Shown here in pieces: positions 30,393-58,587 of a stretch of DNA of 64,000 nucleotides. Positions within the stretch are counted from its first letter, which is position 1, and each line of letters begins with the position of its first letter. The notes beneath the pieces are model-generated. The model was not told the origin of the DNA. It did no database searches and saw only the letters and a list, made by a program, of their open reading frames with translations. This DNA comes from Escherichia coli (GTDB taxonomy: Bacteria; Pseudomonadota; Gammaproteobacteria; Enterobacterales; Enterobacteriaceae): assembly GCF_044647545.1 (NCBI RefSeq), contig NZ_CP172818.1, one strand, 5' to 3'. The position numbers and the translations under genes were made by a program.

Positions 30393-30482
<90 letters not shown>

Positions 30483-45390: not shown

Positions 45391-45530
45391 CGCTTAATGT
45401 AAGTCGTAATGACGAAGCCGCCTCTTCAGGCGGCTTTTTCAATCATGCGATTTATATTTTAACAATGGCATACGCATGCATAAAGTGGTATAATAACTTT
45501 GTCTGCCGCATTCCACTCCTGGAGACGCAT

Positions 45531-55545: not shown

Positions 55546-55935
55546 TCAAGAAAATGCCAGGAACGGAGAAACACAAAGCAACAAACCAGTGACGATAATC
55601 AGGTACAGAGACATCCCTTTGTATTTGTGCAATGCCGGTACTTTGTAAACCAGCCACGCCGGGATCAGGCACCCTACCATGCCGAAAATCGGGCTACAGA
55701 TAGAGGTGAAGCTCAACACCGGTGCGTTCAGTACGATGGCGCTCCAGGCCAGCAAAATGGCGAAAATCATGATGCCGCGCTGAACGAGATTTTCGTTAAT
55801 CTTCTCGGCAGGCATCTTGCGACGCAGGATGTTCATTACGATCCCTTGCGTTGCTTCGCGAAAGCCTAAATAGACGCCAAAAAACGCGGTCATTACTGCA
55901 AAGATATTGAGAATGACGCTGACCCTTTCACCCAC
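55546..55935 (-). pseudogene. cyuP: 3' (C-terminal) fragment of serine/cysteine transporter gene; 5' two-thirds replaced by the GC-rich block
   Basis: ORF 55546..56160 (204 aa): the C-terminal ~130 aa (...VSVILNIFAVMTAFFGVYLGF...LAFS) look like a HAAAP-family transporter tail, the N-terminal ~70 aa are Gly/Trp-rich low-complexity translation of the C/G-rich block; K-12 YhaO/CyuP is 443 aa. Confidence 0.65.
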
Positions 55936-56640
<705 letters not shown>

Positions 56641-56893
56641 GGGCATTACCGAAAGCGTCAAAGAAAATGCTTATCTTATCGATCCAAAAATTAATTACAA
56701 TACAGATTTAAACATAGAGGATTCTAGCTCAGAGGAATTCCTTTCAGATAATACACTAGAGAAAGACGAAAATTCTCCTGACAATTGCTTTGAGGTCGTA
56801 AAATATAACACATATGAAGCTTATAACTCAGAGAAGCAATATTTTACCAGAGAGGACTATACGTATGATTACGACCTTTTAAATGCAATATAG
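56641..56893 (+). pseudogene. yhaC: AT-rich 3' remnant of an ORF convergent with rnpB (probably yhaC in K-12), 5' part missing
   Basis: Stop-free frame ...ITESVKENAYLIDPKINYNTDLNIEDSSSEEFLSDNTLEKDENSPDNCFEVVKYNTYEAYNSEKQYFTREDYTYDYDLLNAI* ending at 56893; sharp switch from ~80% GC to AT-rich at about 56640; assignment to yhaC is from map position only. Confidence 0.35.
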
Positions 56894-56949
56894 ACTTAAT
56901 AATTTCTTACAAAGTCTATTATTAATACCGTAGATATTTATTCATCTTA

Positions 56950-57024
56950 CTCCAAAAGCAAAAACCCGCCGAAGCGGGTTTTTATAAAGCTCCAAAAGCA
57001 AAAACCCGCCGAAGCGGGTTTTTA
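56950..57024 (-). terminator. two tandem 40-bp copies of the rnpB rho-independent terminator
   Basis: ctccaaaagcaaaaacccgccgaagcgggttttta occurs at 56950-56984 and 56990-57024; on the minus strand each reads AAAAACCCGCUUCGGCGGGUUUUUGCUUUUGGAG just 3' of rnpB. Confidence 0.75.
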
Positions 57025-57032
57025 CGTAAAAC

Positions 57033-57409
<377 letters not shown>

Positions 57410-57441
57410 GGCGCGCAGTATAGAGGGTTTGCGCGCCCTTG

Positions 57442-58587
57442 TCACCCCGCGTTGCGCATTCCAATCGCCAGTGTCGCGGCGATATTACGTGAAGCACGGT
57501 AAATATTGTCATAAGCCCCGCGGAATGCTTCGTCCAACGTACCAATACTGGTCAATACGCTGAAGACCGCATCAATGCCATGCTGATGTACAACGCCAAC
57601 ATCATTGGTCAGGCTACCCGCAATGCCAATCACCGGTTTATGGTACTTTTTCGCCACGTTTGCGACGCCAATCGGAACCTTGCCGTGTATACTCTGGCTG
57701 TCAATACGCCCTTCACCGGTGATCACCAGCGTACAATCGTGAATATGTTCCTCCAGATTCAGCGCCGTAGTGACGATTTCAATACCACTTTTCAGTTCCG
57801 CACCAAGAAACGCCATTAGCGCCGCGCCCATACCACCCGCAGCTCCTGCGCCGGGGACATCTTTCACATCAACATGCAGCGCTTTTTTAATGACATCGGC
57901 ATAGTGAGAGAGGTTATTGTCCAGCTCAACAATCATCGCTTCACTGGCTCCCTTTTGTGGGCCAAAGATGCGCGATGCGCCGTTATCGCCCACCAGCGGA
58001 TTGGTGACATCACAAGCGACGCGAATGACGCAATCTTTTAAGCGCGGATCGAGGCCGGAAATATCAATATCATTCAGAGTATTAAGACTACCGCCGCCAA
58101 AACCAATTTCATTGCCGTTGGCGTCGCATAATTTCGCCCCCAGCGCCTGTACCATGCCTGCACCGCCATCATTTGTAGCGCTACCGCCAATGCCGATAAT
58201 AATGTTTGTCGCGCCGCTCTCCAGCGCCTGCAGAATTAACTCGCCTGTGCCGCGTGAAGTGGTCACGAGTGGATCACGTTTTTCCGCAGGTACCAGCTCC
58301 AGCCCACTGGCCGCCGCCATTTCAATAAACGCGGTTTTGCCATCGCCGGAGATCCCCCAACTGGCATTCACCTTCTCGCCCAGCGGCCCTGTAACCCAGG
58401 CGTGACGTTCGGAACCCTGGGTGGCTGCAATCATCGCTTCCACCGTTCCTTCGCCACCGTCGGCAACAGGAACAGAAACGTACTGTGCATCAGGAAAAAT
58501 TTCCCGAAATCCTTTTTCTATCGCCTGCGCAACCTCGCTGGCAGATAAACTTTCTTTATAAGAGTCTGGGGCGATTACGATTTTCAT
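57442..58587 (-). CDS. garK: glycerate 2-kinase
   Basis: ORF track 57442..58668; 381 aa from MKIVIAPDSYKESLSASEVAQAIEKG. Confidence 0.9.
   Translation of the reverse strand: MKIVIAPDSYKESLSASEVAQAIEKGFREIFPDAQYVSVPVADGGEGTVEAMIAATQGSERHAWVTGPLGEKVNASWGISGDGKTAFIEMAAASGLELVPAEKRDPLVTTSRGTGELILQALESGATNIIIGIGGSATNDGGAGMVQALGAKLCDANGNEIGFGGGSLNTLNDIDISGLDPRLKDCVIRVACDVTNPLVGDNGASRIFGPQKGASEAMIVELDNNLSHYADVIKKALHVDVKDVPGAGAAGGMGAALMAFLGAELKSGIEIVTTALNLEEHIHDCTLVITGEGRIDSQSIHGKVPIGVANVAKKYHKPVIGIAGSLTNDVGVVHQHGIDAVFSVLTSIGTLDEAFRGAYDNIYRASRNIAATLAIGMRNAG

Follow-up and report, generated by a model that had tools for sequence, protein, structure and literature searches.

The window analysed here, a stretch of 64,000 nucleotides of Escherichia coli DNA, carries rnpB, which encodes the RNase P RNA, on the minus strand, a convergent remnant of yhaC on the plus strand and, in the spacer between them, two identical terminator hairpins arranged in series. 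The features of this interval are the following.

56644-56893, plus strand: 3' remnant of yhaC, 82 codons and a stop codon, without a start codon, convergent with rnpB
56929-56947, no strand assigned: stretch resembling a segment of the rnpB 3' part (CGTAGATATTTATTCATCT compared with CGTGGACAGTCATTCATCT at 57064-57082; 79% identity over 19 nt)
56950-56984, minus strand: distal (extra) terminator copy, 100% identical to the proximal copy; hairpin 56960-56983, GC core 56965-56978
56985-56989, no strand assigned: inter-copy junction TAAAG, 5 nt, derived from neither flank of the single-copy allele and found in none of 5,426 complete E. coli genomes
56990-57024, minus strand: proximal terminator copy, rnpB T1 (high confidence); hairpin 57000-57023, GC core 57005-57018
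57033-57409, minus strand: rnpB, RNase P RNA (M1 RNA, class A); Rfam RF00010, 318.6 bits, model positions 1-367 of 367; annotated as rnpB in relatives
57417-57445, minus strand: promoter-like site for rnpB, GTGACA-17 nt-TATACT, 10 of 12 matches in a consensus scan, a consensus match only

The promoter-like site ends 8 nt upstream of the 5' end of rnpB. Given the position of the gene on the minus strand, the proximal hairpin begins 9 nt beyond the mature 3' end of the RNA, and the suggestion of a first-pass annotation that terminator hairpins lie 3' of rnpB is borne out by two perfect hairpins. The yhaC remnant is identical to a pseudogene ('hypothetical protein, missing N-terminus') located beside IS1 in NZ_AP022098.1. 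The stretch at 56929-56947, a weak two-copy match which is present also in relatives and in MG1655, may represent the decayed end of an old duplication of the rnpB 3' part, as far as can be judged from sequence likeness.

The 64-kb window holds two copies of CTCCAAAAGCAAAAACCCGCCGAAGCGGGTTTTTA, at 56950-56984 and 56990-57024 on the plus strand, with 0 mismatches; no further copy with up to 3 mismatches was found elsewhere in the window, and 100 shuffles contained 0 such copies. The start-to-start period is 40 nt, the repeated unit itself comprises 35 nt, and the 5 nt that trail each copy read TAAAG after the distal and CGTAA after the proximal one. The pair had been described as two head-to-tail 40-bp copies. 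Two exact copies placed 40 bp apart are indeed present, but since the trailing 5 nt are unlike, the pair does not consist of two full 40-bp copies and the unit is 35 nt long. Tandem Repeats Finder did not report the 40-bp pair at the thresholds used. An inverted-repeat search detected the perfect hairpin AAAAACCCGC-CGAA-GCGGGTTTTT inside each copy, in which the stem CCCGC/GCGGG is lengthened by A5/T5 and the 4-nt loop reads CGAA on the plus strand and UUCG on the rnpB strand. The A-tract and T-tract flanks (AAAAA-CCCGCCGAAGCGGG-TTTTT) are present in both copies and make the hairpin symmetric in form, as had been proposed.

Identity and predicted action of the rnpB terminator

The proximal copy is, with high confidence, rnpB T1, an ordinary intrinsic terminator, and would be expected to terminate transcription, judging from its position, its sequence identity and its fold. 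Its 35 nt are base for base the rnpB-adjacent sequence in MG1655 (L001) and in the loci L002, L003 and L004, and their distance from the mature 3' end is the same there. The first bases past the proximal unit are shared too, and the window (CGTAAAACAGGTGAAACTGACC) and MG1655 (CGTAAATCAGG) differ at the 8th base. The proximal copy, folded on the rnpB strand, reaches -19.4 kcal/mol (z = -5.1) around the UUCG loop and is followed by UUUUUGCUUUU, the U-tract candidate of this strand; the distal copy folds with -17.0 kcal/mol (z = -3.9). Both sequence elements of an intrinsic terminator, a G+C-rich stem-loop and a U-tract directly 3' of the stem, are thus present. A simple terminator scanner missed the hairpins, probably because the A5 and T5 runs lengthen the stem. 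rnpB T1 is among the natural terminators characterised in a published panel, and its upstream A-run and downstream U-run make an extended outer helix (PMC3643576). The window differs from the E. coli rnpB T1 by a second identical copy 40 bp downstream, which was seen nowhere else.

In intrinsic terminators, a GC stem closes in the emerging RNA, and the U-tract then allows release of the transcript. On the minus strand, RNA polymerase running out of rnpB would transcribe AAAAACCCGC-UUCG-GCGGGUUUUU and then GCUUUU, the GC stem with its UUCG tetraloop would form in the nascent RNA, and release would take place in the U-tract about 33-36 nt beyond the mature 3' end, leaving a 3'-extended precursor to be trimmed later. 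A 3' extension of about 33-36 nt presumably fits the M1 precursor of the early literature, which is extended at its 3' end and trimmed with the help of RNase E. Participation of RNase E in M1 maturation has been reported (PMC11251521). The second identical hairpin, 40 nt downstream, could catch read-through only, and the distal copy, if present in the cell, would be a redundant back-up. Its biological weight would be minor, the most that one more identical terminator could do being to reduce read-through. Because each unit is a palindrome as well as a direct repeat of the other, the complete two-unit RNA can also fold as one long nested helix (-42.1 kcal/mol), and for the same reason the DNA should readily lose one copy by slippage.

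Termination in both directions had also been proposed, for rnpB on the minus strand and for the convergent reading frame on the plus strand. From the A-run/T-run symmetry this is plausible. On the plus strand both copies fold with -13.9 kcal/mol, and the U-tract candidates 3' of the stem are UUUUUAUAAAG or UUUUUACGUAAAA. A symmetric A-tract/T-tract hairpin between convergent units, which folds on both strands, is what the window has in common with the bidirectional terminators found between convergent genes (SEnd-seq, RNAP-collision; bioRxiv 10.1101/2022.10.23.513370). However, its plus-strand partner is a promoterless gene remnant. The consensus scan found no plus-strand promoter-like site within 56000-58500, and the sequence upstream of the yhaC remnant is junk. 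Since the 82-codon remnant has neither a start codon nor such a site, there should be little plus-strand transcription that needs termination.

The single-copy allele of the relatives and the searches for a doubling

The locus is matched by 5,425 of the 5,426 complete E. coli genomes. In the closest relatives found (H1-H4, e.g. NZ_AP022098.1) the gene order is cyuA, a truncated permease gene, IS1, the yhaC 3' remnant and rnpB, and an IS1-associated deletion takes out the tdc operon, yhaB and most of yhaC. The window aligns to 66 kb of NZ_AP022098.1 in three blocks (99.990% identity over 41.4 kb, 99.952% over 10.5 kb and 100% over 7.0 kb), and over these roughly 59 kb the two differ at 9 aligned positions, of which 4 are substitutions and 5 are gapped bases. 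The yhaC-rnpB spacer of the relatives holds one terminator copy and reads ...CATCTTA, CACTATG, CTCCAAAAGC, hairpin, ACGTAAAACAGG, compared with ...CATCTTA, copy, TAAAG, copy, CGTAAAACAGG in the window. In other words, CACTATG is swapped for 40 bp (one copy and TAAAG), which amounts to a net gain of 33 bp relative to NZ_AP022098.1; the spacer measures 152 bp in the window and, by the same measure, 119 bp in the relatives. The idea that the repeat could mark the edge of a rearrangement does not hold, since the right-hand edge of the deletion lies at 56643/56644, 306 bp upstream of the repeat, and H1-H4 share the same IS1 deletion yet hold a single terminator copy.

In a tandem duplication the left flank stays in place, and the junction consists of right-flank bases followed by left-flank bases. 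One tandem duplication from the single-copy allele does not lead to the window sequence, in which the left flank is without CACTATG and TAAAG matches neither CGTAA... nor ...CTATG. One deletion from the 113-bp allele of K-12 type, described below, was considered as well and yields neither the left junction nor TAAAG, because CTCC follows TGCCC in that unit. The closest simple scheme consists of a forward jump deleting ACTATGC, copying through the hairpin and a backward jump to TATG, and these three steps still require an extra change to reach TAAAG. Judged from these alignments, the allele would require no fewer than two or three events inside a stretch of 45 bp.

A 121-nt query across the doubling returned single-copy best matches only in the 5,426 complete E. 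coli genomes, with 88 bp in two pieces at 94.4%. In the same set, which comprises complete RefSeq genomes only and was searched by BLAST with the low-complexity filter on, a 47-nt query for the middle junction gave only two partial matches at unrelated loci, and a 47-nt query for the left junction gave no match. The pattern hairpin-N1-31-hairpin was found 0 times in 100,044 species genomes and 0 times in 241 million metagenome records, and the single hairpin, used as a positive control, gave at least 120 matches in each of these two collections. Among the matches listed, E. coli-type rnpB loci account for 24 of 240 hairpin loci, and one Rugamonas contig carries two hairpins 316 bp apart. The exact 25-nt hairpin AAAAACCCGCCGAAGCGGGTTTTTA occurs in more than 120 species genomes of unrelated Proteobacteria, including Pseudomonas, Oxalobacteraceae and Serratia. 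This distribution across unrelated Proteobacteria indicates a generic terminator sequence, and its recurrence is apparently convergent.

Sequence quality and origin of the doubling

A filler of 707 bp, low in complexity and rich in C and G, occupies 55937-56643 of the window; it includes C12 runs and, at 56603-56630, an uninterrupted 28 G. The filler sits exactly between the points where the relatives carry a 768-bp IS1, i.e., between the truncated permease gene and the yhaC remnant. A noisy copy of IS1 was rejected as its source, as the global alignment scores below shuffles and no residual IS1 similarity was found. Within the filler, 56203-56423 shows about 75% identity to tdcE with many small deletions; tdcE belongs to the interval removed by the IS1-associated deletion, and a piece of it should therefore not occur here. 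We know of no natural process that makes such filler, and it looks like the product of an assembly, polishing or generation step. The 306 bp separating filler and repeat, as well as 7 kb beyond the repeat, are error-free relative to the relatives, so that the corruption is not continuous with the repeat.

Further differences from the relatives are scattered over the window. Positions 30459-30461 read GCC instead of CGG, a change private to the window, for which the best match among the 5,426 genomes is 96.3% over 81 nt. At 45436/45437 a 5.3-kb CS1-type fimbrial operon, present in the exuT-exuR interval of NZ_AP022098.1, is missing; the junction of this deletion is spanned by no complete E. coli genome searched, and less than 70 bp from it the window also shows an A/G change and an inserted CTG. 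A 1-base deletion at 55925 (GACC-CTTT vs GACCACTTT) affects the permease remnant 12 bp before the filler.

We consider it somewhat likelier that the doubling is a defect of the sequence record, and not a natural allele, than that it is a real private duplication, and assign to such a defect a probability of about 0.55. This reading is supported by the uniqueness of the doubling to the window, the failure of every single-event derivation, the presence of filler 306 bp away and two further private differences, and it is weakened by the perfect agreement of the sequence flanking the repeat with the relatives and by the fact that filler and repeat are not contiguous. Since the doubling was found in no other sequence searched and adjoins corrupted sequence, it would be either a private mutation or an error, and in both cases of little wider interest. 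Its practical use is that of a quality flag, the region of about 55937-56990 being unfit for inference unless the underlying reads are checked. The first-pass annotation had not weighed an unreal doubling.

Palindromic hairpins do undergo short tandem duplication in nature, and databases by definition lack a private allele. A genuine, very recent and private tandem duplication, which would place two identical intrinsic terminators in series, is a possible explanation that we hold tentatively. Such an allele would increase the total termination of rnpB read-through and, on the plus strand, would stop transcription coming from IS1 and the yhaC remnant. Its copies are perfect, as a recent event would leave them, its flanks are free of errors on both sides, and it would have arisen in a spacer that is naturally hypervariable and changes via repeats, with lengths of 115, 119/120, 240, 400/403, 520 and 626 bp among the loci listed. 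On the other hand, at least two to three events in 45 bp would have been needed for the loss of CACTATG, the gain of a copy and the new TAAAG junction, none of the other genomes and metagenome contigs searched has the 40-bp tandem, palindromic direct repeats of 35 bp only 5 bp apart would be expected to slip away fast, and the record is unreliable nearby. That the 40-bp tandem is a real private mutation, in which the terminator of an essential stable-RNA gene underwent a complex duplication associated with the hairpin and slippage has not yet removed the copy, appears less likely than not to us, although conceivable. If true, the allele would be a naturally occurring double T1, and its rnpB 3'-end formation could be set against that of the single-copy relatives.

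The pheV terminator and the 113-bp repeats of K-12

Another potential source of the extra copy is ectopic exchange with the terminator of tRNA-Phe (pheV), or else a by-product of the IS1 deletion, in which case the repeat would be a marker of the rearrangement; we regard these origins as highly unlikely. The pheV terminator resembles rnpB T1 in its position after a stable-RNA gene and in 20 shared nucleotides, TCCAAAAGCAAAAACCCGCC, but lies at another locus and has its own loop and right arm, TTGTGGGCGGGTTCTT. Moreover, the island-end fragment of one genome, which holds the pheV terminator with only the 3' end of the tRNA, reads TATAAAGCTCCAAAAGCAAAAACCCGCC, like the window junction. This extra match extends over just 5-7 nt, however, and is found in 1-2 of the 5,426 genomes, and each window copy has the rnpB-type loop and right arm, with GAAG in place of TTGTGG. 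A by-product of the IS1 deletion is at odds with the single-copy state of the relatives that share this deletion and with the distance of 306 bp to its edge. The shared TCCAAAAGCAAAAACCCGCC, which comprises the left flank and left arm, lies at 56951-56970 and 56991-57010 of the window and, in pheV loci, at 153-172 of L250 and near 1510-1535 of L007 and L008.

Knowledge of T1, and of repeated terminators behind rnpB, goes back to the 1980s. In MG1655 the yhaC-rnpB spacer is 613 bp long (L001 2104-2716) and contains the exact hairpin three times at 113-bp intervals, together with decayed copies and a REP-like element, so that the K-12 reference does have repeats 3' of rnpB, in line with the first-pass annotation. 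The 113-bp unit consists of a duplicated piece of the rnpB 3' part, GGTGAAACTGACCGATAAGCCG...GTCATTCATCT, followed by CTCCAAAAGC and the hairpin; the rnpB 3' segment between K-12 hairpins also reads GGTGAAACTGACCGATAAGCCG...CATTCATCT. We take these 113-bp repeats between yhaC and rnpB to be those of the early rnpB literature. A literature search on them returned nothing useful, the early rnpB papers lying outside its coverage.

Like the pair in the window, the K-12 repeats are head-to-tail terminator hairpins downstream of rnpB. They differ in their period, 113 bp compared with 40 bp, and in their content, as the K-12 unit copies about 60 nt of the rnpB 3' end, whereas TAAAG alone lies between the units of the window. 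They differ in distribution too, K-12 units being widespread and the 40-bp tandem unique to the window. The expectation that the arrangement departs from the reference was therefore right, since MG1655 shows 113-bp units and not a 40-bp two-copy structure, but the difference is not one in the copy number of a single repeat. Although repeated terminators do exist in MG1655 and at least one full 113-bp unit is present in 3,237 of 5,426 complete E. coli genomes (about 60%), a copy-number variant of these classical repeats is the explanation to which we give the least credence, as both the period and what the unit contains refute it, and so do junctions that a deletion from the 113-bp allele (...TGCCC precedes CTCC) does not reach. 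The metagenomic E. coli contigs among the matches listed show hairpin spacings of 113-114 bp only. In L003, the distal unit bears the variant hairpin CCCGCCAGTTTACTCTGGCGGG.
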